32,000 bases of DNA from Acaryochloris marina MBIC11017. Lineage in GTDB: Bacteria; Cyanobacteriota; Cyanobacteriia; Thermosynechococcales; Thermosynechococcaceae. The translations under genes and the position numbers were made by a program. The stretch's first letter is position 1; each line of letters opens with the position of its first letter. Shown here piece after piece: positions 5,666 through 22,939 of this stretch. The stretch covers positions 510,001 to 542,000 of the forward strand of contig NC_009925.1 in the NCBI RefSeq assembly GCF_000018105.1, read 5' to 3'. The notes beneath the pieces were generated by a model that had not been told where the DNA came from, did not search any database, and saw nothing but the letters and a program-made list of their open reading frames with translations.

Positions 5666-5873
5666 TACAAACACCTCTTTCAAATGATGTTGTTTTGGAT
5701 ATAAACAGAAAGTAAGTATTTATTAAACTCAATCTAATGCGAATTAATCATTTTAATCAGTCTATCATGAGTGGACTGAGTATTTTTGCTCATCGATTGT
5801 GATTTCTTATCTGTTTCATTCAAATTCTTAAATCAATGGCACTGACTTAAGCTCAATCAAACAGCTAGCTTAT

Positions 5874-7265
5874 CCCTCTTTTATCACTTTAGACAGATAA
5901 AAAATAGACTATTCTCAGTTTCTATTTTTCTAATGAGTGATGTCAGCTTCAAGAAGTCCAGAACCAACCATTGGCTTTGTTGATGAGTACTGCCAACTAT
6001 TTGCAGAGTTATTTCCCCAAGTCCGCAGTTATGAAGCCTTCAAGCATCTCCATCTGGGGATGATTAGTGATATCAAACGTAAATCATTGCCCGCCATTGC
6101 AAGAGCAGTGGGCTTGGAGAACCATCAAAGCCTGCATCATTTTCTGAGTGAATCACCTTGGGTAGCGTCACATTTGTCTGACAAGAGATTGGACATCATC
6201 TTGAAAATACTGGATGGGCGCAGGTTAATTCTATTGATCGATGAGACGGGCGATTGCAAAAAAGGCAAGAGTACCGACTATGTGAAACGGCAGTATATCG
6301 GCAATGTGGGCAAGAAAGAGAATGGCATCGTCGCAGTCACTGCCTACGGGCTGTTTCAAGGGATGATTTTGCCTTTGTCCTTTGAAGTGTACAAACCCCG
6401 AGAACGTCTTAAAGAGGAGGATGAGTATCTCAGCAAACCCCAAATTGCTGCTGGAATGATCCGACAGTTGCAAGGGATGGGCTTTTGCTTTGAGCTCGTC
6501 CTGGCTGACAGCTTGTATGGGGAAGCTCAAACAAACTTTGTGAATGTCTTAGAGGAGTTAAAGCTGCCCTATATCCTAGCGATTCGTAGCAATCATGCGG
6601 TGTGGTTACCCGCAGAACAAGCAGTCTTTGCCGAACCGTGGCAGTCATTTGAACGAACCTTCAGCAATGGCACCACTGAAACTCGTTACAGGCAAGAGAT
6701 CATTTATGGCCAGCGACACCACCAGAAGCGCTATTGGCTATTAACCACGGACCCCCAAACGCTACCAGAGAACTCAACCTCTTATGTCATGGCAGCGGCA
6801 CCCGAGATCAAGCTGGATGAAATTGGGGATTGCTATGGCTTCAGAACTTGGATTGAGTATGGTCTCAAACAGTCTAAAGATACCTTGGGTTGGGCTGATT
6901 TTCGCATGACGCACTACGAACAAATTGAAAAGTGGTGGGAGATAGTGATGAGCGCTTTCTTGATGGTGAGTTTGTTCGCTGATGTCTTCAATGACTCTTG
7001 TCCAGTGGCACATCAACACTTTGCGCAGCATCCTTGGTGGGATAACCAAAACGGGTGGAAGAATCTGCTCAATAATGTGCGCTTGATCATTCAACCGTTA
7101 ATCAGTTGGAATCTTCTAAAGCGCTGGTTAGAAGTCTTTCCCAGCCGTGCTTTGAAAAAGGGGTTTGAGCAACTCACATCAAAGATGGAGGCATTTTGCT
7201 GTCCACTGGTGAGGAAATTGCTCAAGCATCCTGATTTTCTCTCTGTCTAAAGTGATAAAAGAGGG
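5874..7265 (+). mobile_element. IS701-family insertion sequence (1392 bp), apparently intact
   Basis: Perfect 23-bp inverted repeats: CCCTCTTTTATCACTTTAGACAG at 5874-5896 and its reverse complement at 7243-7265. A 4-bp direct repeat TTAT flanks them at 5870-5873 and 7266-7269. Confidence 0.9.
5940..7250 (+). CDS. IS701-family DDE transposase
   Basis: The track ORF starts at a GTG at 5937 and the first ATG is at 5940. The sequence has the layout I associate with IS701/ISAs-type transposases (FVDEYCQLFAELFP..., LLIDETGDCKKGKSTDYVKRQYIGNVGKKENGIVAVTAY, ELVLADSLYGE). The stop lies inside the right IR. Confidence 0.85.
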   Translation: MSASRSPEPTIGFVDEYCQLFAELFPQVRSYEAFKHLHLGMISDIKRKSLPAIARAVGLENHQSLHHFLSESPWVASHLSDKRLDIILKILDGRRLILLIDETGDCKKGKSTDYVKRQYIGNVGKKENGIVAVTAYGLFQGMILPLSFEVYKPRERLKEEDEYLSKPQIAAGMIRQLQGMGFCFELVLADSLYGEAQTNFVNVLEELKLPYILAIRSNHAVWLPAEQAVFAEPWQSFERTFSNGTTETRYRQEIIYGQRHHQKRYWLLTTDPQTLPENSTSYVMAAAPEIKLDEIGDCYGFRTWIEYGLKQSKDTLGWADFRMTHYEQIEKWWEIVMSAFLMVSLFADVFNDSCPVAHQHFAQHPWWDNQNGWKNLLNNVRLIIQPLISWNLLKRWLEVFPSRALKKGFEQLTSKMEAFCCPLVRKLLKHPDFLSV

Positions 7266-7267
7266 TT

Positions 7268-8416
7268 ATACCAAATCCGACTTACTAACCCCCGAAACAT
7301 TTCATCTGTCAAGCTGGCCACCAATGGTAATGAGTTAGAGCTTTAATGTCCGATTGCATTGTCATTAAGGTTCGACAGCGCTGCTCGAGAACATCTTCGA
7401 GGTCATCCAGGGTCTCAAAACACTGATTAGCCAGTGGCTCGTCCGCTAGCCGCCACAACCGTTCAGCTGGCTGTAGCTCTGGAGAATAGGGGGGTAAAAT
7501 CTTCAGATGAATGCCAGGTGGCACCACCCGATTCTTACAGGTATGCCATCCGGCTCCATCCAGAACGAGAAGAATCTGTTTGTGCTTTCCCGCTCCAACT
7601 TGCTGAGCAAAGCTTTGTAGGGCTTGATTAAACCATTCTCCATTGACCCGAGGTAGAATGAACCATTCGGTATCGCCGGTTGCGGGATGAACGAATCCGT
7701 ATAGATAGGTCCATTCATAGCGATGGTCCACCTCAGCAATTGGACGCTGCCCCACAGGCGCCCAAATCTTTCGAATAATGGGTTTAAGGCCTAATCGGTG
7801 TTCATCAAAAGACCAAATTTCGACCTGAGCATCACGATAGCATCGCTCTAATTCTGCTTTGTATTCAGGAAGTTTTTTTAAAGGCGGCTTGGGCCTCCGG
7901 TTCACCTTTACGATGATGAGGACGTGGGCATTGCAGGGACTGCTCCAATCGCTTGAGATAGTCCCAACCCCGTTGGGGCCAAACCTTATCGACTCCTGTC
8001 ATCTGAGCGATGACCTGGGCTACTTTGGGTCCGTTCCATAGACCACCGTCGGCGGGTGGTGTTTGTAGACGAGTCAACAATTGTGCACATTGGTCTTGAG
8101 TGAGAAGACTGCGAGATTGATGAGGTCGCTTATCTTTGCGTCGGTTGTGTAACCCATGGGCGCCATTGTGGTTATACTCCCTGACGATTTCTCGAGCGTA
8201 ATCGTAGTTGAGACCCACCACTTGAGCTGCGTGAGTCAGGGTTGTTTGCTCACTGACGAGCCATAGTAGATGCCAGCGGCGCGATTCTACTGGGTCTTTG
8301 CTGGCTCGATAATGAGACTTCAGCTCGTCAGGCGAAAAATGAGGTTCGAGATATAGTTTTCTTGGCATTCTCTAATAATGCATCATATCGGGGTTATATA
8401 AATCGGATTTGGTATT
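7268..8416 (-). mobile_element. IS630-family insertion sequence inserted in the 3' end of the IS4 transposase gene
   Basis: The imperfect terminal IRs are ATACCAAATCCGACTTAC-TAACCCCCGA (7268 onward) and the reverse complement of 8416 backward, ATACCAAATCCGATTTATATAACCCCGA. The first 13 bp are identical. The size of ~1.15 kb fits IS630. A TA lies at the right flank (8416-8417). The left flank is obscured by the IS701 insertion, so the boundaries are good to about 2 bp. Confidence 0.7.
7309..8368 (-). CDS. IS630-family transposase in two overlapping frames: an HTH part (7865-8368) and a DDE part (7309-7905), joined at an A7 run
   Basis: ORF1 (167 aa) is the helix-turn-helix half and ends ...AAFKKTS*. 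ORF2 carries the DDE half (EIWSFDEHRLGL..., LLVLDGAGWHT..., YSPELQPAERLW). The frames overlap at TTTAAAAAAACTT on the minus strand (T-run 7873-7879 on +). Joining them gives a ~350-aa product, typical of IS630. Confidence 0.8.
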
Positions 8417-9769
8417 AGCTTTGAGAGCAGAGCGAGGTTGTCGCATTCGCGGGAAAGATTTGGGTCTGCGTTTGACGACTCTCGGTTCGTGCCGATTCGG
8501 TCGAGAGGGTAATAGATCGGCTGCCATGGTCTCAAGTAGATGAGTAAACAACCGCTTTCTGGTCGCACGGTTGGCTGTCGCCAACAAAGCAAGCATCTGA
8601 TTGAAGTGTTGTCGTGCTCCTTGCACAGACAGTTGAGTTCTAGCATTATCTGCTAGCGGTGCCGCAAGTTCCATGAGACTTCTGAGTAGGTTATAGCCCA
8701 ACAAATGTACCCAAATGTCCTTGCGCACCATATCCGGAGTTTTGGCACTGAGCATCTCCATTTTTAAGGTGGTTTTGAGATGGCGCAGATTGACTTCCGC
8801 CACTGGCCAACGCCAGCCATACAAGCGAGTCAGTTGCCCAGCGCTGTAGCGTTGAGCATCCAGCAGCGTCGTCACCACAATAATGTGCTGGTCGCGAAAG
8901 CCCTTAAGGGATAAGCGCAAACACACCTCTCTAACGACCAATGTTTGAGGAATCAGGGCAAAATCTTGCTCACTCATGTGCTCAGGCCGTTGGGCTGGCT
9001 TATGCCATGTCACCTGATGATCACCAATGCCATGCTTGTTGCCTTTGCGGAAATCAGTCTTGCGAGCATGATGTTTACGCAACACTCCATCAGCCCTGTG
9101 TTGTTGAATGATGGCTAGATCAACATAGCTGCCATAAGCTTGGTCCGCCATGACCACATCACCGACCTCAAGGTCTTGATAGAGCAAACGACTCATGACA
9201 ATTTCACTGGTGTCCCAGGAGGCAATACAAGCTGACGCCACTGCACCGGTAACCAAACAGAAGAACACTACCAAGCGAGCGATGGGAAAACCACAGCCTG
9301 CTGTTTGATTGCCATGTTGTGGATATGATGCTTGGTTGGCCGCACTATCAGCCATCAACACGGTGGTTCCGTCGTAGACCTTGACGGGCCGACCACACCA
9401 GAGGTGCTCTGGGGAGAGGGGTTGCGCTAAGCACTCAGCGCTTTCGGGAATTAAACGTTGCAACAGTGACTCTGGAAAGCGACTTCTGGCTTTGCTGTAG
9501 GCTCCGGTATCAGATGAGGGCGGTTGGATGCCAGCCGCTGTGAGCCAAGTCGTGATGCATTTGACTGTGTTACGAAGGCTTTTATCGGCTGATAGCACTT
9601 GGTAAAGCATGGCCCACAGCGTAACGATGGGGCTATATATCCGGTTGCGATAGGAGAATGCTTCTTCTTTCAGGAGTTCCTCTAACCTTGAGGCTGGAAG
9701 GATATCTGTCCACGGTAAACCCAGGCTTTGGGAAAATTGCTGCTTGAGAATTTCGGCTGACTCAGACAT
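8372..9769 (-). CDS. IS4-family DDE transposase; the last ~13 codons are encoded by the inserted IS630 end
   Basis: The track ORF begins at a TTG at 9820 and the first ATG (MSESAEILKQQF...) is at 9769. The layout is IS4-like (VYDGTTVLMADS..., VVMADQAYGSY..., YGWRWPVAEVNLRHLKTTL). The C-terminal NTKSDLYNPDMMHY is translated from the IS630 inverted repeat. Confidence 0.8.
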   Translation of the reverse strand: MSESAEILKQQFSQSLGLPWTDILPASRLEELLKEEAFSYRNRIYSPIVTLWAMLYQVLSADKSLRNTVKCITTWLTAAGIQPPSSDTGAYSKARSRFPESLLQRLIPESAECLAQPLSPEHLWCGRPVKVYDGTTVLMADSAANQASYPQHGNQTAGCGFPIARLVVFFCLVTGAVASACIASWDTSEIVMSRLLYQDLEVGDVVMADQAYGSYVDLAIIQQHRADGVLRKHHARKTDFRKGNKHGIGDHQVTWHKPAQRPEHMSEQDFALIPQTLVVREVCLRLSLKGFRDQHIIVVTTLLDAQRYSAGQLTRLYGWRWPVAEVNLRHLKTTLKMEMLSAKTPDMVRKDIWVHLLGYNLLRSLMELAAPLADNARTQLSVQGARQHFNQMLALLATANRATRKRLFTHLLETMAADLLPSRPNRHEPRVVKRRPKSFPRMRQPRSALKANTKSDLYNPDMMHY

Positions 9770-10305
9770 AGTGAAAGGCAGAAGTTTATGGCGTGCAAGT
9801 CTTGATCCTATATCTATCAAGACTTGTAGCCTTTTCCTGACTTCTTAAGTCAGTGCCATTGATTCTTAAATAGCTCTCACGGCTAACGTTATTCAGGGCA
9901 GATATTGCTTTCCGGATTTTTTGGTGTGTCTACCAAAGAATTTTAGGTTGCAGCCTAGATAAGAATAGAGACTTCAACTTACCCCAATATCGGGGGGTAT
10001 GAGGGCTAAGTGTGGGTGGTCAGTAACTAAGGCTAATTCAAGTTCCAGGAAGGAAAGCTGAAACAAAAATTCTTGTATACCCGGGCTTCTGGTAACACTC
10101 TTGTTTCTCGTGAATTTCTAGTGCTTTTGAATGACTTCCTGTGAAATTAAATAGTCTTGGGAACTAACTGGGTTTAACCCAAAAAAATCACTAAGCTTAG
10201 TGAAGAACCAGCTCAGTGAAATTTTTGTTTATTGCATAAGTCTCTTAGGATATTCTCTAAAGAAACTTAAATTTTTTGTGAGATCAACCCAAAAGCCTAT
10301 TAAGG

Positions 10306-10689
10306 CTAGTTCCATACAGTTACTTTTTTGGGATCCTGAAACTCAGGAATATTGATTAAAAGTTCCACTTCATTTAGAGGATTTCCAAGTTCATAGATCG
10401 AGTTCTTCGTTGTGACATAAACACGACCTTTTTCAGAAAAATACCCTGTGACGCTTGAGGTATTGATCTTGACACCCTGGGTATATTTCTCATGATTATG
10501 AATGCGACCTTTAATGATGACTCTGCCGTTTTTACATAAGCCTACCCATGACTCAATTACTGGAACCCCCTTAAAGTCATACTTTGTAACCTTTCGACCT
10601 TCAGAGGAATGATCGAGAAAAAAACCAGTGATATCATCAACGGTAACCATGGGGATCGAGGGGAAAACGAAAGGGGACAACAAATACAT
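10306..10689 (-). CDS. Hypothetical protein (127 aa; alternative ATG at 10650 gives MVTVDDITGFF...)
   Basis: The ORF starts at an ATG and sits in a visibly AT-rich, HIP1-free islet between IS elements. I recognise no family. The composition looks beta-rich (KGRIHNHEKYTQGVKINTSSVTGYFSEKGRVYVTTKNSIYELG). Confidence 0.4.
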   Translation of the reverse strand: MYLLSPFVFPSIPMVTVDDITGFFLDHSSEGRKVTKYDFKGVPVIESWVGLCKNGRVIIKGRIHNHEKYTQGVKINTSSVTGYFSEKGRVYVTTKNSIYELGNPLNEVELLINIPEFQDPKKVTVWN

Positions 10690-10907: not shown

Positions 10908-12548
10908 CCTATATTTTCTTACTAAAAAATCCAAGAAAATGTGCTTAGGTTGAACTGAGCTTATGTAGGGTTTGCTGAGAAAGTAAATTGAGCAAATTCC
11001 ATGCATCAAATCGTACAAGCAACCCATTTGTGACGGCCAGAGCCATATCCTTTGACTGGCCCTAGCAAAGCCCCAAGGAAGTCCTGACAGCTCCATAACG
11101 CTTTCCAAAACCAGCAATCCCACCCCAAAAATGAACGATAAAAAGTGGCTGAGCCACCGCTCCAGATTCATGACCAAGAACGTGATAGCAATCGCACTGG
11201 CAGCCGTATCCGCTAACTTCGCCATCACTCGATTCAAGCCAAACCGTCGCTTGGCCTGCCCAAACTTACCCTCAATCTGGACCCTCACCTTTTCATCCTC
11301 ACACGCTTGTTGCTTGAGTTGGGTCTGTACTTGTGGGTCTTGTTGAGGTCTTCCTAACGGCGGTCCACTCAAGCGAATCCCCCGAGCTTTACACCATCGT
11401 CGATTAGCCCGAGTCCGATAGATTTGGTCAGCATGGACTGAGAAAGGATAATGGCCAAAGCGACGACGAAAGGCTTCCACTTGATGTTGAAGATGCTGGG
11501 ATTCATTGAACGCATCCCAACTCAAGCGCTCCAGAAACACACATCCACGCACACAACTGAGGGATAGCTTGGCTCCAAACTCAACGGGTGTTCCAGCTTT
11601 GCCTCGGACCATCGGTCGGACATGAGGCTGACTCATACTGACAATCCGGTCGTCCACTCGACGTACTGACTGTTGATACATCCATTCTTGCTGTCGAAAG
11701 ACTTCATGAATCACCAGCAACAGACGGTACTGCCGCCGGGACAATTGGGATAGGGAAGCCCCCAATGTTATCAACCCATCAATATGGGCTAGATTGCGAC
11801 GCACATAGCCCAACTGCTGACGAATCCCTTTACGAATCAGCTTGCGGCTCGGTTGACGTTTTTTGGCAATGGCCAGATAGGCTTTGCGGGCCTTCTGGCG
11901 GTAGGTGCGAGGTTTGCACTTGAGGGACAGCATGACTTGAGCATATAAAGCATCGAGGATGGCTTCGCTTGCTTTGCGGGCATCATTGAGCAAATCCAAG
12001 TCTGTCGGATAGCGAATATCGGCTGGTGCACAGGTCGTATCTATCAACAATTGGCCCTGGTTGGGAGGGGCAGGAGGCTCATCTTCATCATCGTCAGAGG
12101 GAGGAGATGACTCAGGGGACATCGCCACAGGAGACCCCTCGGATGCCAGCACAGAGTCCACGACTGCGTCATTGACTTGAGCTAGCAGCTCTAGATTCAA
12201 CCGTTGGCGAAAGTGAACCAGCATGGAGGCATCAAACGGAGCACTCTCTCGATATTCACTAAACCCCAGAAAGTACTGCAAGTAGGGGTTCTCTCGAATC
12301 TGTTCTACGGTCTCTGCGTCGGATATACCCAGTTTCTCTTTGATGATTAAGGTCCCTAAGGCCACACGAAAGGGTTTGGCAGGTGCCCCCATGGTCTGAC
12401 TGAATTGGTCTGCATATTCTGACTCAAAGCTCTCCCAAGGAATCAACTCGGCTAGTTTGACCCAGCGATTCTCTCCTGAAAGTTTCCCTCCAAAGGGCAA
12501 GTAGAAGTTCTCAAAGGACAGTTGACCGGGGGATGGACGGCGATACAT
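10878..12548 (-). CDS. IS5/IS1182-family transposase (556-aa ORF; the last ~28 codons read past the putative IR)
   Basis: ATG at 12548. The N-terminal InsH-type region is QLSFENFYLPFGGKLSGENRWVKLAELIPWE and NPYLQYFLGF. An acidic/Pro linker follows, then the DDE region (LLIDTTCAPADIRYPTDLDLL, HADQIYRTRANRRWCKARGIRLSGPPLGRP, QIEGKFGQAKRRFGL). Confidence 0.8.
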   Translation of the reverse strand: MYRRPSPGQLSFENFYLPFGGKLSGENRWVKLAELIPWESFESEYADQFSQTMGAPAKPFRVALGTLIIKEKLGISDAETVEQIRENPYLQYFLGFSEYRESAPFDASMLVHFRQRLNLELLAQVNDAVVDSVLASEGSPVAMSPESSPPSDDDEDEPPAPPNQGQLLIDTTCAPADIRYPTDLDLLNDARKASEAILDALYAQVMLSLKCKPRTYRQKARKAYLAIAKKRQPSRKLIRKGIRQQLGYVRRNLAHIDGLITLGASLSQLSRRQYRLLLVIHEVFRQQEWMYQQSVRRVDDRIVSMSQPHVRPMVRGKAGTPVEFGAKLSLSCVRGCVFLERLSWDAFNESQHLQHQVEAFRRRFGHYPFSVHADQIYRTRANRRWCKARGIRLSGPPLGRPQQDPQVQTQLKQQACEDEKVRVQIEGKFGQAKRRFGLNRVMAKLADTAASAIAITFLVMNLERWLSHFLSFIFGVGLLVLESVMELSGLPWGFARASQRIWLWPSQMGCLYDLMHGICSIYFLSKPYISSVQPKHIFLDFLVRKYRSQPRQELEF

Positions 12549-12671
12549 CGGGTTGCAGGTGCAAGGGTTTTAAATATTTTGAATGATTTTCCTTGCACTT
12601 CTCAAGGGCCCTCAACACTTGGATACACTGCAAATATTGGAACTTAGACTTCCGAAGCAAGCCCTATGTAG
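10962..12671 (-). mobile_element. IS5-family (IS1182-like) insertion sequence
   Basis: The imperfect terminal IRs are TTATGTAGGGTTTGCTGAGAAAGT (10962-10985) and the reverse complement of 12648-12671, CTACATAGGGCTTGCTTCGGAAGT. They match at 17 of 24 positions, with a TAGGG-TTGCT core. I could not define a clean target duplication, so the boundaries are approximate. Confidence 0.6.
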
Positions 12672-12708: not shown

Positions 12709-13761
12709 TTAATAAACCGTGACTGGAGTAAAGCAAACTTTATTGCTTTCAGGACTGCTGATTTGCCCCACCTTTGCGGTGACTGTATAGCAATGTTGTT
12801 CTCCAGCCAATCCTTGCATTTCGGTTGAGTTACGACTGTCTGAACCAGTGTAAATTTTGGACTTCTGGGACGTGGAAGGAATTTCCTGATTCACTTCAAA
12901 AGTGACGCCACTTAGAGCACCGGACCACTGCCAATTTAACTCGATCTGGTTGGTGCCAGGTTGTTGAGTAGCGGTTAAAACAGGGCTAGGTTGGCTAGTT
13001 CCTGTGCGGGACGTTGCAGTACTGCTCAATCGATGAATTTCTACATCGGAGATTTGGCTACGCATAATTAGATTAACTTGACTGCCCTGTACACAGGCTT
13101 GAAACCCCCCTTTCCCCATCATTACCCCTGGTGTAGGACAGGTGGGGGTGTTATCGATTTCCGCTGCGATCGCATCCACTAAGGTATCGCTAGCAACGGG
13201 GTTACTACAGGGATTGATACTGCCATCACTGGCGGGAACACGACCATACCGGTGAATGGAGTTGGGGGCAAGCCAGTCTTGGGTACTGGGGCGGATGTCA
13301 TACACGACCTGATCATAGGTCGCGGGTTGAGGTGGAGGTGAACCTGCATTAGGACCTCCAGCAGGACAAATATCTGGAACCTGGGAGGTGATGGGAATTT
13401 CTAAGTAAAGTACGGGGTTACTCCAGTCCGAAGCTTGTAAACCTGCACTGGTCAGCATACTAGACATGGAAGAGGCATCCGTTGCCTTCATCATTTGGGA
13501 TTGGTTAATACGTTTCGCCATCCTAATTTCATTGCTAATGAAATCGAAAGCTCGGCTTAAGTCGTGGCGTCAAGCCGCAATCGCTTCAGTCCGGTTGTTG
13601 GCTCGGGTTGCTGCAATCACTCCAAGTCCTGCGACACTGACGACCAGGCTAGTAATGACAGCTGCAACCAAGAGTTCCACCAAAGTAAACCCATGGTGAG
13701 TGGATAAAGTCTTTTCAGATGGCAGCTGATTCAAACCATCTCTCCCTAAATGGTGCTTCAT
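12709..13761 (-). pseudogene. PilW/GspJ-like pseudopilin with a C-terminal FN3-like domain, interrupted by one in-frame TGA (13570-13572)
   Basis: The ATG at 13761-13759 overlaps the upstream stop as ATGA. The prepilin leader and methylation motif read MKHHLGRDGLNQLPSEKTLSTHHG/FTLVELLVAAVITSLVV, with Glu at +5. Track ORFs 13570-13788 and 12709-13521 are in the same frame, separated only by the TGA: ...NNRTEAIAA*RHDLSRAFDFISNEIRMAKRINQ. Confidence 0.8.
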
Positions 13762-14648
13762 TGCTCCTCCCAGTTCTCGGCAGTGCAACGGCCAGAGTCC
13801 GTAATGGCAGCTGGACTCATATCGCCTTGATAGGTACCAATACGGGTTAACCCTAAAGTATTGGAAATCGCAATACAGCGTTTAGTGGCTTTGGAATCAT
13901 CAGGACTGTAAAAGATAATCTTGCCACTAGGATCTGTTGGTGTTTGTTGAGCACTAACAATCGCAAATTCAGGGTTGCCTAAAACACCATATTTGATCGG
14001 GATGCTGGCTGATGGCCCAGGACTAGAGGGCGAATCGTGTCCACCATTTCCTGACTCATCTTTATCTTTGTTTTTGCAAGTCCCTAAACCTAATCCTTTT
14101 TCGGTATTACCTTTACATTTAGCGATAACCTGAACGATCACCCCCGCTTTAGATGCTTTTGCTTCAGGAACAGGAGCCATAGCGATTTGGGAGATAGTTT
14201 CACCATCGCTCAGTCCTAGAGAGGGTTGCACATCTGAACCAATTAGAACGGGCTGCCCTTCATTGGTACGGGCTGTGTTTGAGTTTGGATCTGTCAAATT
14301 AGTTGCGATCGCAACATCCGTTTCCAAGGTGCGATCACCCGATTTGAGACAAGGTCCAGTTATTTTCCCTTCCACAAAATTGAGGGTTAGGGTGCAAATT
14401 TTATTGCCTTTAATGGCTTCTCGTTGAGTTTCATTCAATGCTGTGCGGACTTCCGCCATTGTCTGCTTAACTTTGGCTCGGTTCATGGTCGCCATAATAC
14501 TCGGGGCTGAGGCAGTGGCAGCGATGCCGATAATGGCACCAATGACCATTTTTTCAGCCAGAGTAAACCCCGTCTCTGAGGGTGAAGGTCTGAGTTTAAT
14601 CAATGGATACAAGCGGAGCATGGCAATTTGCAGCAGAAGAATGAACAT
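13758..14648 (-). CDS. GspH/FimT-like pseudopilin (296 aa; alternative ATG at 14621)
   Basis: The prepilin-type motif is SETG/FTLAEKMVIGAIIGIAATASAP, with Glu at +5. The region that follows, MATMNRAKVKQTMAEVRTALNETQREAIKGNK, has a GspH/FimT-like layout. There is an internal low-complexity stretch, KNKDKDESGNGGHDSPSSPGPSAS. Confidence 0.75.
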   Translation of the reverse strand: MFILLLQIAMLRLYPLIKLRPSPSETGFTLAEKMVIGAIIGIAATASAPSIMATMNRAKVKQTMAEVRTALNETQREAIKGNKICTLTLNFVEGKITGPCLKSGDRTLETDVAIATNLTDPNSNTARTNEGQPVLIGSDVQPSLGLSDGETISQIAMAPVPEAKASKAGVIVQVIAKCKGNTEKGLGLGTCKNKDKDESGNGGHDSPSSPGPSASIPIKYGVLGNPEFAIVSAQQTPTDPSGKIIFYSPDDSKATKRCIAISNTLGLTRIGTYQGDMSPAAITDSGRCTAENWEEQ

Positions 14649-14744
14649 AAATAAAAGAGGGCTTTCAGCTTCAGGGGGGACAAACTTCCCATCCCCTATG
14701 AGACTTGCCCATACTTTGACAAGAAATGGATTAAGGCATCTTGG

Positions 14745-16214
14745 TCACAACCTCACCCGTTGCCAACTTTTCACATAGCCAAACTTATTCTTGGGAGTAA
14801 TGCCAATACCACTGACCACATCTGCCAAGCTGGATACATCGTTGGGCACTCTAATGCCGGACGTACTGCCATTGGTCGTGATGATGTCAAAATCTTCAGA
14901 AGGTACGCTGCGGGTATGGGGGGTGATGTTAATCGAACTGACGACATCCTCTACCCAAGCGACGCCATCAAAATTAGTATTTCCACTACTGGGACAGCCG
15001 TCTCCTGTCCCTTGTAAATGGAGATCATTCTCCGTGTTATAAACAAATGCGGTATCAATACAGGATTGATCGTAGAGTTCGATGGCGAGATTTGGACCAA
15101 CTGCATTGTGAACAATAATCCTTAGATCCCCCACTCGTGGAAGTTGCCCATCCGTGCGAATGTTGCGCAGTTGAGCATTGCCTCGCAATTCAAAGGATTT
15201 AGTTACGTAAAGGTAAACTGGACCATCTGTCGTGTCCACATTCACCACATTCGTACCATCCAGTTCCAGTTCTTCAATATGGTAAGGGCTGTCTGCAGCA
15301 GTGAGAGTGGTACTACTCCTGACGCTGCCTAAACTCCTCACAGTTGAGGGTAAATCGACAGAAAGTGTTTGTGTAACCTTGCAACCTACGATGTTACCGG
15401 CAATTAAATCCTCAGCAGGACCATCGGTAGCAGTTGAGTAAATGGCATTGAGATAAGCAGAACGATCAACATCATTCGGTGCTGACTTATCCGTCAGGCT
15501 GCTGTCCACAGAATAGGCCGGGTCGAAGTAAAGATTGGCATGTTGACCAATAAGGGTGCGTCCCCGAATGTAAGCACCTTCCATTGCCAGAACACCAGGA
15601 AAATTCTCTACTTCGGACTGTATAGACAGGGTAGATAGCACATAAGATACTCGTTCTCCCTGCTTACCTTCAATAAGCAGGGTCCCCGTTTGTTCCGTTG
15701 GATTATACCGATAGGCTTTGAGTTGGTATTGACCGCCAGAACCCATGTTTCCTGAAGTAGTAACACTAGGAGTGATGGTCGTCCCAGTATCCTCACACGG
15801 AGATGAAGTGCTGCCTGTATATCCCGTCCATTCGTCAATAGCCGTGGTTTCTTCATCCCCAGAATTGAGAATGCCATCAGGACCAAGATAGGTGGTTCCA
15901 GTTTTGGGATTGATCGTATCGTAGCTTCGAGTCAATAAAATTCGATTATTCGGCTGAGTCATTTGGGACAGCATGCGAGCCATGCCCCCTTCCGACACGG
16001 CTAAACTAGCCCCAGCTTCTTTGCGGCTAAATGCGGAGGTGCGATCGCTTTGGGCAATCATGATTGTCGACAACCCTAAAATGACCATCACAAAACCCAG
16101 TCCTAGGGCTAGGGGCAAGGCAAATCCCTTATTAGGTTCATTTCCCAGTCTGTTCAGAGCTAGATAGGATGGCTGCCCTAATCGAGATAGAGAGGCTGAC
16201 AACTTTGGGCTCAT
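14745..16214 (-). CDS. Large PilX-N-type pilus-associated protein, paralog B (489 aa from the ATG at 16214; the track ORF starts at a TTG at 16259)
   Basis: The N-terminal hydrophobic segment NKGFALPLALGLGFVMVILGLSTIMIAQSDR resembles a pilin leader but lacks Glu+5, as in the PilX N-terminal domain. A GGGGG Shine-Dalgarno-like run lies 8 nt upstream of the ATG at 16214. It is a clear paralog of 16856-18406 and shares the C-terminal WQRVRL. Confidence 0.8.
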   Translation of the reverse strand: MSPKLSASLSRLGQPSYLALNRLGNEPNKGFALPLALGLGFVMVILGLSTIMIAQSDRTSAFSRKEAGASLAVSEGGMARMLSQMTQPNNRILLTRSYDTINPKTGTTYLGPDGILNSGDEETTAIDEWTGYTGSTSSPCEDTGTTITPSVTTSGNMGSGGQYQLKAYRYNPTEQTGTLLIEGKQGERVSYVLSTLSIQSEVENFPGVLAMEGAYIRGRTLIGQHANLYFDPAYSVDSSLTDKSAPNDVDRSAYLNAIYSTATDGPAEDLIAGNIVGCKVTQTLSVDLPSTVRSLGSVRSSTTLTAADSPYHIEELELDGTNVVNVDTTDGPVYLYVTKSFELRGNAQLRNIRTDGQLPRVGDLRIIVHNAVGPNLAIELYDQSCIDTAFVYNTENDLHLQGTGDGCPSSGNTNFDGVAWVEDVVSSINITPHTRSVPSEDFDIITTNGSTSGIRVPNDVSSLADVVSGIGITPKNKFGYVKSWQRVRL

Positions 16215-16397
16215 TGATTTACCCCCTGTCCACGATCGGTCAGAGGGATGAAAAAGCAACTGCCATTGGAGTGGCTAAGCCAATCATTGAGCATAGAAAA
16301 ATCAGAAGGGGTTAGATGCCAATGGAGAACACATGGGCAGGACAGTGTTACAGGACAACACTGTTCATATCCTGGCTTTCATGGCCTGTAGCTGGCG

Positions 16398-16476
16398 ACA
16401 GAGATTATACGGAATTCCCTCTCAAGAATAAGTATCGTTGCCAGGGGAATTCCGTAATTTTGAGGAGAATCTCTGT
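16398..16476. other. Nested imperfect hairpin in the spacer between the two paralogs
   Basis: The outer stem pairs ACAGAGATT (16398-16406) with AATCTCTGT (16468-16476). The inner stem pairs ACGGAATTCCC (16409-16419) with GGGAATTCCGT (16445-16455). The function is unknown. Confidence 0.5.
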
Positions 16477-16855
16477 TAGATTAGGCCTAAGCTTTTTCTT
16501 CACATCTAGATTAGGGTAAGGGCCTACAATCGCATCCGTTGCCACTGCAAAGCCCTACTAAACCGATAGCGCCCTAGATAATCAACCTATTTCAAACGGT
16601 CGATTAAACGCTGACCTCTAAAGATTTCGCAATGCCAGAGGTAACGTTGGAGGTAATAACAGCATTGTAGGGAGCGCCAACTTTGCCAATGAAGGGACAA
16701 GACAAGGCCCCGCTCTGAACATTTAGAATATTGTGAATCTACCCTTGAACCTTCAAGGGTTTGTAAATATCGACGCTATGCGTGGAGAAGCGTGACAGAA
16801 AAGTACCTATTCTTCATTCCACCTCATACCCATAAAATCCAAATAATCGTCCACC

Positions 16856-18406
16856 TTATAGCCGAACGCGTTGCCAGTTCTGGACTCCGCCAAACCGATA
16901 ACGAGCTGGCCACTCCACATATTTCAGTAAATCCATCAGACTGGACACATCTTTTGGCACCGCGATTCCAGCTGTGATTCTTGAATTGGCCAAGGGATAA
17001 TAGGTGTTTTTGGGTTGATCATAGTTGGTGCCATTGAAGCCATTGAGAAAGTTCACATCCCGGTGAACTTCCTGATCCTTGAGGGCCAAGATGGCTTCCA
17101 TCCATAACACCCCCTCAACATTCGTATTTCGTCCACCTGGACAACCTGGACCGCTGGTCAGCAACCTTAATTCGTCAATCGGGAACCAGAGAAAGGCATT
17201 TTGGATGCAGCTACGGTCATAGAGGTTCACTTGACTATTTCCCCTAGCCAGAATGCGCAGATCGCCGACCTGAGGGGGTTGATCGTCTGTCCGAACATTA
17301 AGGATTTTGGCATTATCTCGCAGGGTAATGGCTAGCTCTGGATCGGTCCCCCCATACACAACATCAATTTGGACTGGACCTCCCGTGGTATCAACGGTCA
17401 AGACGTCATCATTACCTAAATCAATACTTTCGACGCGATAGAGGGTTGGGGACATGCCTCCTACCCCTCTCAGGGTCGTACTGGAAGTGATACGACCGAA
17501 GTTGGTTCCTTGAATCGTCGTCGGTAGCTTAGGGGGTAAGTTACAGGCAAAGATTTTTCCTTCTACCGTATCGATGGGACTGCCATCCGCCTCAAAATCT
17601 TCCTCATTGGTCGACCAGATGGCATTCAAATAATCATTCCGACTTAGATCTCCTGGGGCGGCACTGTTGGTTAGGGCATCATTGGCTGAGCCGTCAGGGT
17701 TGTAGTAGATATTCCCCTTGCTTCCTAGAACCTCTCGACCTCTGAGCGCCAAGGTCCCCGTCTTAAAAGCTCCATTCGTATTGCGGGAGACGATAATACC
17801 GGGAAAATTGTCTAAATCTGGGGTTACATTAATTGTGATCACGATTCCCGTGGTCTGATCATTGGTGGTTGCTTCTACGAATAATGTGCCTTGCTGCCGT
17901 TTGGGATCATAACGATAGGCCTTCAGAGTGTAGGTGCCATTCACACCGATAGGACCGGAAAACTTAAAATCAGGAGCCCCCCAGTTCATCTGCTGGTGGC
18001 AGGGTTGATTACTGGGGTCATAGCTGGTCCATTCATCAATGGGCTCTGTCTCTTCATCTCCACTATTGAAGATTCCATCTGAGCCTAAATAGGTTTTACC
18101 CGTTTGGGGATTAATTGTGTCGTAATTACGGTTGAGCAAAATGGCGTTGTTGGGGACTGTAAGCTGGGCTAAAGTCCTTGCCATTCCTCCTTCTGCGGTC
18201 GATAAGCTGGCACCCGATTCTTTCCGTTGCCAAGACGTTATGCGATCGCTTTGGGCGGTCATCATCATCGTGAGTCCCAGCACTACCATCACAAAGCCCA
18301 AACCCAAAGCCAGTGGTAAAGCAAAGCCGGCATCCCTGCGGTTGGTCGATTGTCTCTGCTGTAACCACCAACGAATCACTGTTGCGGTAAAGGGATTTAG
18401 GGGCAT
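16856..18406 (-). CDS. Large PilX-N-type pilus-associated protein, paralog A (516 aa)
   Basis: The ATG at 18406 is preceded by GAGGAGGA 7 nt upstream. The N-terminal segment is RRDAGFALPLALGLGFVMVVLGLTMMMTAQSDR. It shares blocks with paralog B (DTINPxTGxTYLGxDGIxNSGDEET..IDEWT, LKAYRY, DYLNAI, VGDLRI, LYDxSCI, PxDVSSL, WQRVRL). Confidence 0.85.
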   Translation of the reverse strand: MPLNPFTATVIRWWLQQRQSTNRRDAGFALPLALGLGFVMVVLGLTMMMTAQSDRITSWQRKESGASLSTAEGGMARTLAQLTVPNNAILLNRNYDTINPQTGKTYLGSDGIFNSGDEETEPIDEWTSYDPSNQPCHQQMNWGAPDFKFSGPIGVNGTYTLKAYRYDPKRQQGTLFVEATTNDQTTGIVITINVTPDLDNFPGIIVSRNTNGAFKTGTLALRGREVLGSKGNIYYNPDGSANDALTNSAAPGDLSRNDYLNAIWSTNEEDFEADGSPIDTVEGKIFACNLPPKLPTTIQGTNFGRITSSTTLRGVGGMSPTLYRVESIDLGNDDVLTVDTTGGPVQIDVVYGGTDPELAITLRDNAKILNVRTDDQPPQVGDLRILARGNSQVNLYDRSCIQNAFLWFPIDELRLLTSGPGCPGGRNTNVEGVLWMEAILALKDQEVHRDVNFLNGFNGTNYDQPKNTYYPLANSRITAGIAVPKDVSSLMDLLKYVEWPARYRFGGVQNWQRVRL

Positions 18407-18830
18407 CCGTTCGTCCTCCTCTGCAAAGGCAGAGAAATGGCTTGAAACGTCCCCATATCAGGCTTTTTGATCACGCCGCTAGCATGATACCGATCACTGC
18501 AATATGCTTCAAACCCAGCCATAGTAAACCTAGAGGAGGTCAGCAGTTCAACTAAACATTACCCAAAAGCCGGAGCCATAAAACGCTCATATCCGTCACT
18601 TTAACTTATGGAGGGATGAAAATAGAGTGATTCTTAATTTCGTCTCAACATCAAGAAATTAAACCTATTTTGTAGGTATAAGTGGTCAGGGTTGAGTCAT
18701 TTTAGGTGCATTCTGAATCTTTAGGTGTATTGAACTCATCTGTGCCAGACCATAAATAGGTGTCAGCATTGCTAGAACGCCGTGCCATAGTGGCACAATC
18801 CCAATTGACGAATAATTTTTGGAGTGGAAT

Positions 18831-19232
18831 ATGTCGAGAAGCAAATCAATCCTATCTTTAGGAAGTTGCGCCTTTGTTGCGCTCAGCGCAATCTTACCCT
18901 TTGGGGCGCATGCCCAAGCAGATCCTTCACAGTTAGGAATTCCTGAAGAGACAACATTTGCTATCATCACGCGGATGAGTGATACTGTTGCCGCCCGTAT
19001 CTCAGCCTCCTCCTGCAAAGATACTCGCGATCTGTTGAAAGAGATGCGTAAGAGCAAGGGTAGCAAAACCTCAGAGCTATCTCTAGAAGGTCAATTACTG
19101 GCCTCTGCCCGTACCCAACCGAAATTACAGCAAGTTGTAGCCAATCGTGTTGGCACAGCCTTGGCCCTCAAGCTGATGGAGTGCAATATGATGAATCCTG
19201 ATACTCTAGGGGCCTTGTTTGATAAGAAGTAG
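18831..19232 (+). CDS. Hypothetical small secreted protein (133 aa)
   Basis: The ATG at 18831 has GGAG 6 nt upstream, and the track ORF starts at a TTG at 18819. The signal peptide is MSRSKSILSLGSCAFVALSAILPFGAHA/QADP. I recognise no family. Confidence 0.55.
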   Translation: MSRSKSILSLGSCAFVALSAILPFGAHAQADPSQLGIPEETTFAIITRMSDTVAARISASSCKDTRDLLKEMRKSKGSKTSELSLEGQLLASARTQPKLQQVVANRVGTALALKLMECNMMNPDTLGALFDKK

Positions 19233-20564
19233 TTAGACCACCACTTGGTTTTCGACAACATTTTGTTGAGCCTGGTGGACTCGATTTCGACCTGAAGTCT
19301 TAGCACCATAGAGCGCCTGATCGGCTTGTTTGATCAGGTGCTCTTTGGTTTGGGCATCACCAGGGAAGGTGGCAACCCCTAGGCTGGCCGTCATCTCTAT
19401 TTGCTGCAAGGAGGGTAGAATAATCGCTTCCTCGGCAATGGCTAGACGGATCCGATCTGCGATCGCAACACTATCATCATGATTGGTCTTGGGCAGAATG
19501 ACCGCAAATTCTTCGCCACCATACCGGCAGACAATATCCCCAGGTCGCACTTCGCGCTGTAGAAGTTGAGCCACCTCACAAAGGGCCAAATCTCCGGCCT
19601 GATGGCCATAGGTATCATTGAGCTGCTTGAAATGATCAATATCCACCATGATCAGCGAAACTTGATCGGTATTGCGCTGGGATTTCTCGACTTCCACCCT
19701 CAACCAGCGATTAAATTCCCGCCGATTGTAAACTTCCGTTAGCCCATCCAATGTTGCTAAACGGTATAAGTCTTGTTGGCTTTGCTCCAGCTTGGTCGCC
19801 ATTAAGTTAAAGGTTGCGGCCAAATGACTAAATTCAGCGTCAGCGGCCAAAGAAATCCGATGGCTCAAATCTCCCTTGCCTAATTTCTCAACCCCGTCCT
19901 CCAAAGATTGAAGGGGGACTGTAATGGACCGAGTGAGTCCATAGGCAAACACGACTGCTAGCATCAAAGCCAAACCGCAAATCATGGCGATCATCTGTCT
20001 AACTTCTTTGCGCACGGCTTCTGCGTGGTTGGCATTGGCATCATTTTGAAATGCAATTAACCGATAATTCAGTTGTTGGACATTCTGCAAAATCATTTTC
20101 AGCTGTTCTTGCAGCTCAACTCTGGCAGGTTCTGACAAGCCCTTTCCCGATTGAGCAACCGAAGGATCCAAGATTTGTTGACACAGCTGGGAAATTCGAT
20201 GCCATTTTCGTTGTATTTCCTGTACAGAATTAAATTTGTGTGGATCCTGGTGGGAGAATTCTAGGAGCCTGGCCAAACTCGCTTCAATCGCTTGACTTTT
20301 AAGCTGATACTCACTCCACGTTATGGAGCGAGATGGTTCCACCGGTGAGGCCACCACATTTAAATCTAGAAGTAACCCCTCAACATGGGCTAGGGGGAAC
20401 AAGGCTTCTCGACCTACATTATCGTGCTTACGAAAGCTATCCAATGCCCCTTCAAAGGAAATAACTGCCCCTGCCGCTAACATCAGTAAGGGCACAAGCA
20501 TGGTCCCTAAACCCAGCCGAAGACGCTGGTTTAGAGAGGTTTTAGGCGTGGACCAAAAGGGCAT
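19233..20564 (-). CDS. Membrane-bound sensor diguanylate cyclase (TM-sensor-TM-HAMP-GGDEF)
   Basis: Two TM segments (LGLGTMLVPLLMLAAGAVISF and MIAMICGLALMLAVVFAYGL) bracket a ~170-aa extracytoplasmic region. A HAMP-like segment follows. The GGDEF domain has the active site RYGGEEF and an RxxD I-site (RPGD) five residues upstream. Confidence 0.9.
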   Translation of the reverse strand: MPFWSTPKTSLNQRLRLGLGTMLVPLLMLAAGAVISFEGALDSFRKHDNVGREALFPLAHVEGLLLDLNVVASPVEPSRSITWSEYQLKSQAIEASLARLLEFSHQDPHKFNSVQEIQRKWHRISQLCQQILDPSVAQSGKGLSEPARVELQEQLKMILQNVQQLNYRLIAFQNDANANHAEAVRKEVRQMIAMICGLALMLAVVFAYGLTRSITVPLQSLEDGVEKLGKGDLSHRISLAADAEFSHLAATFNLMATKLEQSQQDLYRLATLDGLTEVYNRREFNRWLRVEVEKSQRNTDQVSLIMVDIDHFKQLNDTYGHQAGDLALCEVAQLLQREVRPGDIVCRYGGEEFAVILPKTNHDDSVAIADRIRLAIAEEAIILPSLQQIEMTASLGVATFPGDAQTKEHLIKQADQALYGAKTSGRNRVHQAQQNVVENQVVV

Positions 20565-20575
20565 GGAAGTACTGC

Positions 20576-22939
20576 TTATTCTGCAATCGGTAGAGACAAG
20601 CTCATGGGACTAGACAGGGTAGCAATAACCTGTTGGGCTGCCTCCGGTTGAAGAGGACGAGCAAACCAATAGCCTTGTCCAAGCTCACACCCTAAGGTGT
20701 GGAGATATTGCATTTGTTCTATCGTTTCAATCCCTTCTGCCACAACATTCATCTCTAGGCCATGGGCAAGAGCAATAATGGTTTTGACAATTTGATCTTG
20801 CCCTTGGCCAATGCCCCAAACAAACGATCGATCGATTTTGAGGGTATTAATGGGCAAGTTATACAGATAATTCAAGGATGAATATCCGGTGCCAAAATCA
20901 TCCAAACTGAGGGAAATTCCTAAGTTTTGCAATTGCTCTAGTCGATCGGTGACGTAGTGAGTGGACTCCATTAACACCGTTTCGGTAATTTCCAGTTTGA
21001 GATGGTGACCAGCCAGCTGGTGCGACTGCATTAAAGATTCAACAGACTGGACGAAATTAGGTTGCAGAAACTGTTGACTCGACACGTTAATACTCATGGT
21101 TAACGGTACGGAAAATTCCTGTTCCCATACCGCGAGTTGTTGACAAGCAGCTTTTAAAACCCACTGCCCCAGCGGAATAATCAGCCCCGTTTCCTCAGCC
21201 ACAGGAATAAACTTCTCGGGGGAGATCAGGCCTTGTTGGGGATGATGCCATCGCAATAGCGCTTCAAAACCGATCAGCCGCTGTTGCCGCAAACAGAAAA
21301 TGGGCTGATACTGCAATAGAAAGGGATTCTGTCCTTGTTCAATCGCTTTGACCGCATATCTAAGACTATTGCCTAACCATAAGCGAGAGCGAACTTGCTT
21401 ATGCATGGTCTCATCGAAGACTACATACCCCCCGCGACCGTGGGCTTTGGCACGATACATGGCCGTATCTGCATCTCGCAGTAGTTCTTCAGGATGTTGA
21501 TACAGGCTGGTGGAGTGGGTAATCCCAATACTGACTGAAGTAAACACTTCTTGCTGATTGAGCTTTAGGGGCTTAGCCAGGGACCGCTGGATACGTTGAA
21601 CAATCTTATGGGCCTGTTGATGATTGACGACTCCATCCAGGAGAATGGCAAACTCATCTCCTCCCAAGCGAGCCAGCAAATCCTGAGGACGCAAACTCTC
21701 CTTAAGCTGTTGGGCAATCGCAACAAGAAGCTGATCCCCCACGCTATGCCCCAAGCTGTCATTGACAAGCTTGAAGTGATCGACATCCAGAAACAAAATG
21801 GCAAAATGGCAAAGCTCTGCCTGACGAGAGTATCCCTCTAATTGCTGGCGCTGAACCTGTTGTAACTTCCGTTGAAGCTGCTCATAGAAATAGTCTCGGC
21901 TAGGTAAACCTGTCAGGTTATCAAATAGCGCCTTTTGTTTTAATTGCTCAGCCGTCCGATGTCCCTCCATCGCAATACTCGCCAAATGGGTGGCGGTTTT
22001 AATGATGTTGAGATGATGAGCGGTGGGGGAACAGGGAACTTGATGAGATAAGGCAAAGGTTCCTAATAGATCTCCAGACTGTGAGAAGAAAGGGGTTGAC
22101 CAACAGGCAAGAATATTATGTTGTTGGGCAAATTCTCGAAAGTCCACCCAGACGGGATCGCGTTGCGTGTCTTCTACATAAACAGCCTGGCCACGAAAGG
22201 CGGCAGTCCCACAGGAGCCCGCATTTTCGGCAATTATTAAATGATCAAAGGCAGCGGCCACTTCCGAGGACAAACTGGGACCTGCTCCCATGCGTAGTTC
22301 CGGTTGATGAGCATCCCGTAAAAGGATAGAACAGACCGTCCCTGGAGACTGACTCTCAATCAATAGACACAAACTGTTGAGAATCGCATCTAGACCTTGC
22401 CCCGTTGCTACATTTTCCAAAATTTGGGTTTGGGTTTGCAGCAGCATTTCTGAACGTTTGCGCTGAATGGCTGTTGCTAATACCTGGGCCACACAGTTAA
22501 CAAAATTGCGATCCTCTTTATTCCAATTCTGAGGGTCGGGGGTCAAAATCTCCAGTAATCCCAGGGGACGATCTGGCCCAGGAATCGGAATACAAAGGCC
22601 GCTTATTCCATGGGGTTGTGTCAGGGGGAGTTGTTCGGATTGCCTGGCAATAACGGCTGTTTGCCCCGTTTGCATCAATGTCTGTAACCACGGATAGTCT
22701 CGGCTATCGATATCAGTGGAGTCCCCTAGGAGGGACGCTTTTTGTTTCGCTACTAACCGCAGAGTGTTGCTATCAGAGAGGACTTGCCACAAACTACAGT
22801 CTGAGATCGGCAAGTGGTGACTCATTAGTGCGATCGCATCCAGGTACAAGTCAGTTAAGCTAAACCCGGACAACGCCTTCTGCCCTAGTTCAGTGAGTTC
22901 TGACTGTCTATCTAGAGGATTTGTCGCAAAGTCATTCAT
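20576..22939 (-). CDS. GAF-GAF-GGDEF-EAL c-di-GMP turnover protein (787 aa)
   Basis: Two GAF-like regions come first. The GGDEF domain has RLGGDEF and an RPQD I-site. The EAL domain has GFEALLRW, ELEITE and LDDFGTGYSSL. It lies 11 bp upstream of the diguanylate cyclase gene on the same strand. Confidence 0.9.
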   Translation of the reverse strand: MNDFATNPLDRQSELTELGQKALSGFSLTDLYLDAIALMSHHLPISDCSLWQVLSDSNTLRLVAKQKASLLGDSTDIDSRDYPWLQTLMQTGQTAVIARQSEQLPLTQPHGISGLCIPIPGPDRPLGLLEILTPDPQNWNKEDRNFVNCVAQVLATAIQRKRSEMLLQTQTQILENVATGQGLDAILNSLCLLIESQSPGTVCSILLRDAHQPELRMGAGPSLSSEVAAAFDHLIIAENAGSCGTAAFRGQAVYVEDTQRDPVWVDFREFAQQHNILACWSTPFFSQSGDLLGTFALSHQVPCSPTAHHLNIIKTATHLASIAMEGHRTAEQLKQKALFDNLTGLPSRDYFYEQLQRKLQQVQRQQLEGYSRQAELCHFAILFLDVDHFKLVNDSLGHSVGDQLLVAIAQQLKESLRPQDLLARLGGDEFAILLDGVVNHQQAHKIVQRIQRSLAKPLKLNQQEVFTSVSIGITHSTSLYQHPEELLRDADTAMYRAKAHGRGGYVVFDETMHKQVRSRLWLGNSLRYAVKAIEQGQNPFLLQYQPIFCLRQQRLIGFEALLRWHHPQQGLISPEKFIPVAEETGLIIPLGQWVLKAACQQLAVWEQEFSVPLTMSINVSSQQFLQPNFVQSVESLMQSHQLAGHHLKLEITETVLMESTHYVTDRLEQLQNLGISLSLDDFGTGYSSLNYLYNLPINTLKIDRSFVWGIGQGQDQIVKTIIALAHGLEMNVVAEGIETIEQMQYLHTLGCELGQGYWFARPLQPEAAQQVIATLSSPMSLSLPIAE

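Follow-up and report, generated by a model that had tools for sequence, protein, structure and literature searches.

What do four consecutive coding regions on the minus strand of the Acaryochloris marina MBIC11017 genome encode, at positions 12709-18406 of a 32,000-nucleotide stretch of contig NC_009925.1 (hereafter the window)? A preliminary description of this DNA presented them as an Hps-like pseudopilin cluster, comparable to hpsA-hpsD of the hormogonium polysaccharide locus. The open reading frame (ORF) listing bears out the four consecutive minus-strand genes, here called A1, A2, B, and C in that order, and our analysis points to a different identity for them. We consider, with a probability of about 80%, that the cluster is one of several core minor-pilin (priming and tip) sets for the type IV pili of an Acaryochloris-type cyanobacterium. 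The set is partly decayed here, with a stop codon in the PilW-like gene C, a middle PilX copy reduced to a remnant, and the PilV gene missing from the locus.

We compared the window with the loci of relatives, labelled L001 onward, in a sample of 25 loci from species-representative genomes and four contig look-ups. A1 to C are kept in at least 25 loci of several cyanobacterial families, and their ratios of nonsynonymous to synonymous substitution rates (dN/dS) against L026, which is ~85-90% identical to the window in nucleotide sequence, are 0.08-0.15, with A1 at 0.08. Because of this retention and these low ratios, the four are real genes that have been functional and not chance ORFs. The order of A followed by B and C was found in 18 loci, the window included, usually with a PilV-like gene between A and B. 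This PilV-like pilin of ~190 amino acids (aa) is present in most loci outside the Acaryochloris locus orthologous to the window, and PilV-like genes lie between PilX and FimT in L008, L013, L014, L016, L017, and L020-L024. Examples of the PilX-PilV-FimT-PilW order come from Altericista, Chroococcidiopsis, several metagenome-assembled genomes (MAGs) of Acaryochloridaceae, and a second Acaryochloris locus, L024. The Acaryochloris locus that is orthologous to the window has no PilV gene and one to three A copies.

The large proteins A1 and A2 share the N-terminus GFALPLALGLGFVMV and have Leu rather than Glu at position +5, so that the pilin-like leaders without Glu+5 noted in the preliminary description are confirmed; A1 carries a leader and a cleavage-type motif, G↓FALPL. 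An AlphaFold2 model of A1 built from 83 homologs (predicted local distance difference test score, pLDDT, 87; predicted template-modelling score, pTM, 0.82) contains, in order, an N-terminal helix at residues 29-82, a four-stranded sheet at 150-196, a beta-rich block at ~204-441, and a last strand at 503-514. We read the beta-rich block as a beta-solenoid, and the model thus predicts a pilin fold into which a large segment is inserted ahead of the last strand. The best match in the PDB by Foldseek was ComZ of Thermus thermophilus (6qvi, E 7e-4), a competence-associated tip pilin that, like the A1 model, combines a pilin fold with a large inserted beta-solenoid; the next matches were the solenoids of ice-binding proteins. 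All cyanobacterial PilX homologs have been described as a pilin fold with an inserted beta-solenoid (Schuergers et al., bioRxiv 10.64898/2026.02.12.705559), and the A1 model shows the features of a core-set PilX, namely an alpha1N helix, a residue other than Glu at +5, and a solenoid before the C-terminal strand.

A1 has 260 homologs, all of them cyanobacterial and annotated as hypothetical proteins, with the nearest in Acaryochloris. A search of the full library with an A-family profile returned 419 representative clusters at E <= 0.001, and no PDB sequence matched an A-family profile at E <= 1. Among 69 distant full-length relatives, 54 matched Pfam DUF7305 (PF23981) at E <= 0.01 and two matched PilX_N; several close homologs also bear a precomputed DUF7305 annotation. 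Fold and motif argue for PilX-like subunits of the tip type, as the preliminary description had it, and the PilX_N model itself (PF14341) matched neither A1 nor A2 at E <= 1.

A1 and A2 are 45% identical. The N-terminal helix is best kept (64% identity), while the solenoid and the stretch before the last strand are least kept (25-44%). In a neighbour-joining tree, A1 and the middle copy form sister clades that contain only Acaryochloris sequences, and A2 groups with the L024 A gene in a clade that branches deeper. Given this identity and these separate clades, the paralogs are old. Related loci hold one to three tandem PilX copies, so the duplication of the large subunit is not the oddity that the preliminary description took it to be; L010 has three A-family genes in tandem. 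The A2 reading frame extends to a TTG at 16259, which would give 504 aa; the ATG at 16214, which gives 489 aa, is the more likely start, as gene calls for the L026 and L029 orthologs also give 489 aa. A-family genes without adjacent pilin genes occur in L006, L007, L018, L019, and L027, recalling the unlinked PilX1-3 genes of Synechocystis. In L027, a complete A. marina genome (CP064923, 10001-12300), the genes after the A1 ortholog are unrelated ones, for a ClpB fragment and RRM proteins, in place of A2, B, and C, implying that this strain has a rearranged locus; the L027 chromosome carries a second A homolog (P0017) at another site. The A-family gene of L019, a Thermosynechococcaceae MAG (1433-2815), has an in-frame stop and is possibly another pseudogene of the family or an assembly error.

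B carries the canonical prepilin motif G↓FTLAE and has an alternative start at 14621 that would give 287 aa. Its NCBIfam matches, to GspG, ComGD, and GspH, were weak and N-terminal. The AlphaFold2 model (pLDDT 71) is interrupted by a disordered insertion at residues 142-202, and its ten top Foldseek matches comprised EpsH, FimU, and XcpH, with probabilities of 0.97-0.99 for EpsH and 0.93 for FimU, although the E-values reached only 0.05-0.9. Orthologs of B are named 'FimT family' in the source annotation. The GspH/FimT-like character first assigned to the third gene is supported by these structural matches and ortholog names, and B has both the FimT/GspH fold and the G↓FxxxE motif of the corresponding core-set pilin. 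Among the orthologs aligned, an insertion of this type (~70-85 aa; window 13800-14200) was found only in Acaryochloris; it is of low complexity, with much Gly, Asp, Ser, and Lys, and disorder is predicted for it. The FimT-like ortholog of L008 (Thermosynechococcaceae) has a different, Gly/Asn-rich insertion at another position.

C overlaps B by ATGA and has the canonical motif G↓FTLVE. It matched Pfam N_methyl above the cut-off (27.7 bits), and GspJ models gave weak, sub-threshold matches within the N-terminal ~90 residues. Intact orthologs of C are 340-360 aa long and are named PulJ/GspJ family in the source annotation. Searches of PDB sequences with a B profile and with an intact C ortholog found nothing beyond the universal N-terminal helix of pilins. 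The C-terminal module differs among C orthologs (window 12709-12990; L015 2610-3782; P0475-P0501). That of C itself (~90 aa) looks Fn3-like by eye, as it does in Altericista; several Stenomitos-like and metagenomic C orthologs have a VHL-beta module (PF01847) instead.

Although the preliminary description was correct that the fourth gene is coupled to B by the ATGA overlap, and probably correct that it is PilW/GspJ-like, it overlooked that the gene is not intact. A premature TGA at codon 64 splits C into a 63-codon head and a 270-aa tail, such that the protein as encoded reaches no further than the leader and most of the hydrophobic helix. In L029, a Logan contig with 98% identity to the window across 24647-12665, 10968-9862, and 5833-1, this codon is AGA (Arg). 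The dN/dS of C against L029 is 0.10, without relaxation, which implies that the TGA is very recent or a sequencing error. Recoding of the TGA as selenocysteine or by read-through was considered and rejected, as orthologs encode Arg (AGA) and there is no sign of recoding.

A1 and A2 are separated by 600 bp that are more than spacer, another point that the preliminary description overlooked. In this gap lies what is left of a third PilX paralog, the middle copy: ~42 N-terminal and 57 C-terminal codons, damaged by an in-frame stop, a frameshift, and the loss of 1.25 kb of internal sequence. DNA alignment showed that the window and L029 both lack positions 11956-13208 of L026, the interior of the middle copy, and translations of the remnant (~300 bp) match both termini of that copy. 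L026 itself has three tandem A genes (516, 515, and 489 aa); B and an uninterrupted C of 350 aa come next, and then the small gene found past C in the window.

An insertion sequence (IS) of the IS5 family separates C from that small gene in MBIC11017. Its transposase matched NF033578 at 441.9 bits against a cut-off of 275, its terminal inverted repeats are imperfect (GGGCTTGCT... and GGGTTTGCT...), and the target duplication is 6-7 bp, (C)TACATA; transposase, repeats, and duplication together place it in the IS5 family. The element was noticed earlier and placed 37 bp after the last stop codon. It does follow C, at a distance of 44 bp (IS end at 12664). The site is empty in L026 and L029 at the exact position and, together with the target duplication, this argues that the IS5 is a simple recent insertion that removed nothing. 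The suspicion that the element had truncated the cluster does not hold, as C runs directly to the same small gene in L026 and L029. Three more distant Acaryochloris MAGs (L001, L004, and L005) have a second complete, compact set right after C, with a PilX-like A' (462 aa), a PilV-like V' (277 aa), a FimT-like B' (189 aa), and a PilW-like C' (254 aa), located between C and the small gene orf127 and missing in the window, L026, and L029. Deletion of this second set by the IS5 was likewise rejected, since L026 and L029 lack the set and the target site is intact.

Our assignment agrees with, and extends, what is described for core minor-pilin sets (PilX-PilV-PilW-FimT). Shared features are the solenoid PilX with its hydrophobic +5 residue, the FimT-fold pilin, and, probably, the PilW-like pilin; orthologous loci of other genera carry the full PilX-PilV-FimT-PilW order. 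The MBIC11017 locus differs in its lack of PilV, its two tandem PilX genes and remnant, the ~70-aa insertion in the FimT-like protein, and the interrupted PilW-like gene. Synechocystis PilX1-3 (Slr0226, Slr0442, and Sll1268) and PilA12 (Slr2018, 773 aa) are PilX-like proteins with a hydrophobic +5 residue, as noted in an earlier preprint, and occur as several paralogs per genome, as here. In Synechocystis, however, no other pilin gene is linked to PilX1-3, and Slr2018 is last in the pilA9-slr2019 operon, whereas in the window PilX comes first and in tandem. The Pseudomonas FimU-PilVWXE and type II secretion system (T2SS) GspHIJK complexes share with our locus the GspH/FimU fold of B, a probable GspJ/PilW-like subunit (C), a tip subunit without Glu+5, and a presumed role in priming and at the tip; here, by contrast, PilX has a solenoid and is far larger, PilY1 is missing, and the locus lacks a PilV/GspI or PilE gene. 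Analogous sets have been tested in Synechocystis and Thermosynechococcus, and A. marina has up to 44 pilins in multiple sets (bioRxiv 10.64898/2026.02.12.705559). Primers from that preprint for the Thermosynechococcus vulcanus deletion loci did not match the fetched loci; the single near-match was the shared GFTLxE pilin motif.

Several results weigh against this assignment. No PilV-type pilin was found in the locus or, by motif scan, in the window, and the A2-B spacing is only 96 bp. Because PilX and PilV are described as strictly co-occurring partners (bioRxiv 10.64898/2026.02.12.705559), the set may be incomplete or may use a PilV from another place in the genome. With its stop in C, the set may not function in this strain. 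A1 had no significant match in Pfam or NCBIfam, DUF7305 included, and A2 scored just below the DUF7305 gathering cut-off (25.1 bits against 27). The match of A1 to ComZ is weak globally (template-modelling score ~0.2, identity 11%, E 7e-4), and we take the fold matches of A1 as consistent with a PilX protein and not as proof. Finally, promoter-like and terminator-like sites in consensus scans were no more common than expected by chance.

The most direct rival is the one originally proposed, an Hps-type pseudopilus module (hpsA-hpsD) driving secretion of hormogonium or sheath polysaccharide. Like the Nostoc punctiforme genes, the cluster begins with a large PilX-like protein followed by pseudopilins, and HpsA does belong to the cyanobacterial PilX superfamily (bioRxiv 10.64898/2026.02.12.705559). 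The best NCBIfam match of C was HpsC; this reached only 32.6 bits against a cut-off of 200, however, and was confined to the N-terminal 82 residues, that is, the shared N-terminal helix. In the Pfam and NCBIfam profile searches that had been proposed for the four proteins, none proved to be a member of an Hps, PilX_N, or GspK family. A1 and A2 did not match the HpsA model NF038301 at E <= 1, although the model was present in the library searched and 3 of the 69 distant A relatives matched it weakly. B did not match the HpsB model, nor did the PilV-like gene of the orthologous locus L017, leaving no HpsB-type pilin, and the L017 set likewise falls short of the HpsB and HpsC cut-offs, so that none of the Hps equivalog models (NF038301/303/304) is matched at its cut-off. 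Scanned ORFs of at least 120 aa in the 32-kb window (a 126-aa ORF opposite the small gene orf137 was left out) contained no glycosyltransferase domain and no other hps gene. Size also separates the families. The HpsA-like, exopolysaccharide (EPS) subfamily of PilX is greatly expanded according to the preprint, with Slr2018 at 773 aa and some HpsA-like proteins of >1,280 aa, whereas the A proteins are ~500 aa with a single solenoid, at most one third the size of the largest HpsA-like proteins. Among the 150 best-scoring A relatives, none exceeds ~600 aa and the full-length ones are mostly 430-600 aa. Placement of the A family in the non-EPS ('Com') lineage is favoured by its size, its one solenoid, and the absence of similarity to HpsA. 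The term 'Hps-like' is thus true at the level of the PilX superfamily only, since HpsA is a distant and far larger member of it, and we consider an Hps module very unlikely. We give hardly any credence to a T2SS pseudopilus tip set, with GspH, GspJ, and GspK analogues serving protein or slime export. The GspH fold of B, the GspJ names of the C orthologs, weak GspK matches in 4 of the 69 distant A relatives, and the absence of Glu+5 from GspK would all fit such a set. There is, however, no GspI in the window and no GspK domain in A1 or A2; the sole weak T2SSK match in the window is an unrelated PLD/HhH protein, and the scanned ORFs include no T2SS genes. Characterised cyanobacterial sets of the same family, in Synechocystis and Thermosynechococcus, act through type IV pili.

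A different question is whether the locus is a non-functional relic in this strain, decaying along with IS expansion while redundant minor-pilin sets elsewhere do the work. The TGA in C where the 98%-identical relative has AGA, the reduction of the middle PilX copy to a remnant, and the lack of a PilV gene would all agree with decay, as would the absence from the closest relative of the IS-bearing blocks 10968-12664 and 5834-9861 and the report of multiple sets in A. marina. On the other side, A1, A2, and B remain intact, with purifying selection evident from the low dN/dS against L026 given above, and C is unrelaxed against L029, so that its stop has arisen very recently or reflects a sequencing error. 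The remnant is also present in L029, where C is intact, and therefore deletion of the middle copy did not inactivate the set. A relic is possible, but we find it doubtful, and we retain the interpretation of a core minor-pilin set that is partly decayed.

Coordinates of the pilin set and of the surrounding features are given in Table 1.

Table 1. Features of the locus and its surroundings. Positions are those of the window unless another locus is named.
Feature	Position	Strand	Basis
A1, PilX-family minor pilin, 516 aa	16856..18406	-	ORF, AlphaFold2 model, Foldseek, homologs, dN/dS
Remnant of third PilX paralog (middle copy)	16523..16817	-	DNA alignment, translations against L026
A2, second PilX-family paralog, 489 aa	14745..16214	-	ORF, DUF7305 score, ortholog calls, tree
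B, FimT/GspH-fold minor pilin, 296 aa	13758..14648	-	NCBIfam, AlphaFold2, Foldseek, alignment, source names
C, PilW/GspJ-like minor pilin, 350 codons, interrupted	12709..13761	-	ORFs, Pfam, NCBIfam, source names
In-frame TGA, codon 64 of C	13570..13572	-	Orthologs AGA (Arg)
IS5-family insertion sequence, ~1.7 kb	10968..12664	-	NF033578, junctions, empty site in relatives
orf127/114, small conserved gene, normally after C	10306..10650	-	ORF, comparison
DDE_Tnp_1 transposase	8372-9820	-	Pfam
Split HTH and DDE_3 pair	7309-8368	-	Pfam
DDE_5 transposase	5937-7250	+	Pfam
orf137, small, secreted-looking, divergent from A1	18819..19232	+	ORF, comparison; no Pfam match
Membrane HAMP-GGDEF diguanylate cyclase gene, directly upstream of pilin set	19233..20564	-	Pfam
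GAF-GAF-GGDEF-EAL c-di-GMP turnover protein, upstream of pilin set	20576..22939	-	Pfam
Second set A'-V'-B'-C' in relatives	L001 13917-17259; L004 12160-15518; L005 12184-15530		

Upstream of the pilin genes, the HAMP-GGDEF protein has a GGEEF motif and an RxxD I-site that are intact by eye. Its ortholog lies directly upstream of the PilX gene and on the same strand in ~10 loci of several lineages (L001, L004, L012, L014, L017, L021, L024, L026, L027, and L029). The GAF-GAF-GGDEF-EAL gene, for turnover of cyclic di-GMP (c-di-GMP), is kept in the Acaryochloris relatives L004, L026, L027, and L029. The small orf137, with an N-terminus resembling a signal peptide, was found only in Acaryochloris loci and is 82-99% identical in L001, L002, L004, L026, and L027. 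Downstream, orf127/114 follows C in Acaryochloris; in L016 and L020 its place is just upstream of the PilX gene. The 4-kb block 5834-9861, with three transposase genes, is missing in L029, and there the small genes beyond the pilin set lead straight to ChlD; this block and the IS5 point jointly to recent IS expansion in this strain.

Consistent with the preliminary description, genes for a major pilin, pilus ATPase, platform protein, or secretin were not found among the scanned ORFs, and a motif scan of the window found no further prepilin motif. The remaining window genes, including ChlD, DUF3084, and DUF3110, are cyanobacterial. At 30274-31964, a ParA/MinD-type ATPase gene (31254-31964, minus strand) overlaps the start of a gene for a 330-aa protein with Lys/Ala/Thr-rich low complexity, a C-terminal coiled coil, and a Trp near the C-terminus (...SFDTWCYD), which had no match in Pfam; we take the two to resemble the McdA/McdB carboxysome-positioning pair.

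Gene content, folds, synteny, and lesions are shown by the data above; how such a set might work we infer from the family and the conserved neighbourhood. Prepilin peptidase would cleave A1, A2, B, and C after the conserved Gly, and the cleaved subunits would join in the inner membrane as a priming complex. This complex would nucleate major-pilin polymerisation, carried out by type IV pilus machinery whose genes lie elsewhere, and would end up at the pilus tip, where the PilX solenoid may serve as a cap or adhesin. The divergent PilX paralogs are probably alternative tips, and the conserved upstream HAMP-GGDEF cyclase suggests a link to c-di-GMP signalling. A more elaborate scheme, which we hold to be quite unlikely, is a c-di-GMP-linked 'tip cassette', a module with multiplied PilX and no PilV, physically coupled to its own membrane sensor diguanylate cyclase, in which beta-solenoid PilX caps (A1, the middle copy, and A2) and PilW-like C-terminal modules (Fn3-like or VHL-beta) are exchanged to alter pilus binding, with a shared FimT-PilW scaffold and a PilV borrowed from another set.

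Conceptually, the core minor-pilin interpretation adds little, as it fits the two-set minor-pilin framework recently set out for cyanobacteria, in a genus already known for many sets. The tandem deep PilX paralogs, the loss of PilV here, the variable C-terminal modules of the PilW-like proteins, and the recurrent cyclase neighbour have not yet been described and are modest extensions of that framework. For annotation, the ~500-aa 'hypothetical' proteins can be named as PilX-family tip pilins and not as HpsA. For the evolution of these loci, a copy number of one to three, the deletion of one copy, one nonsense mutation, and IS entry nearby indicate that genes for tip subunits turn over fast. 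The recurrence of a HAMP-GGDEF gene next to PilX, finally, provides a possible connection of c-di-GMP signalling with minor-pilin sets that can be put to the test.

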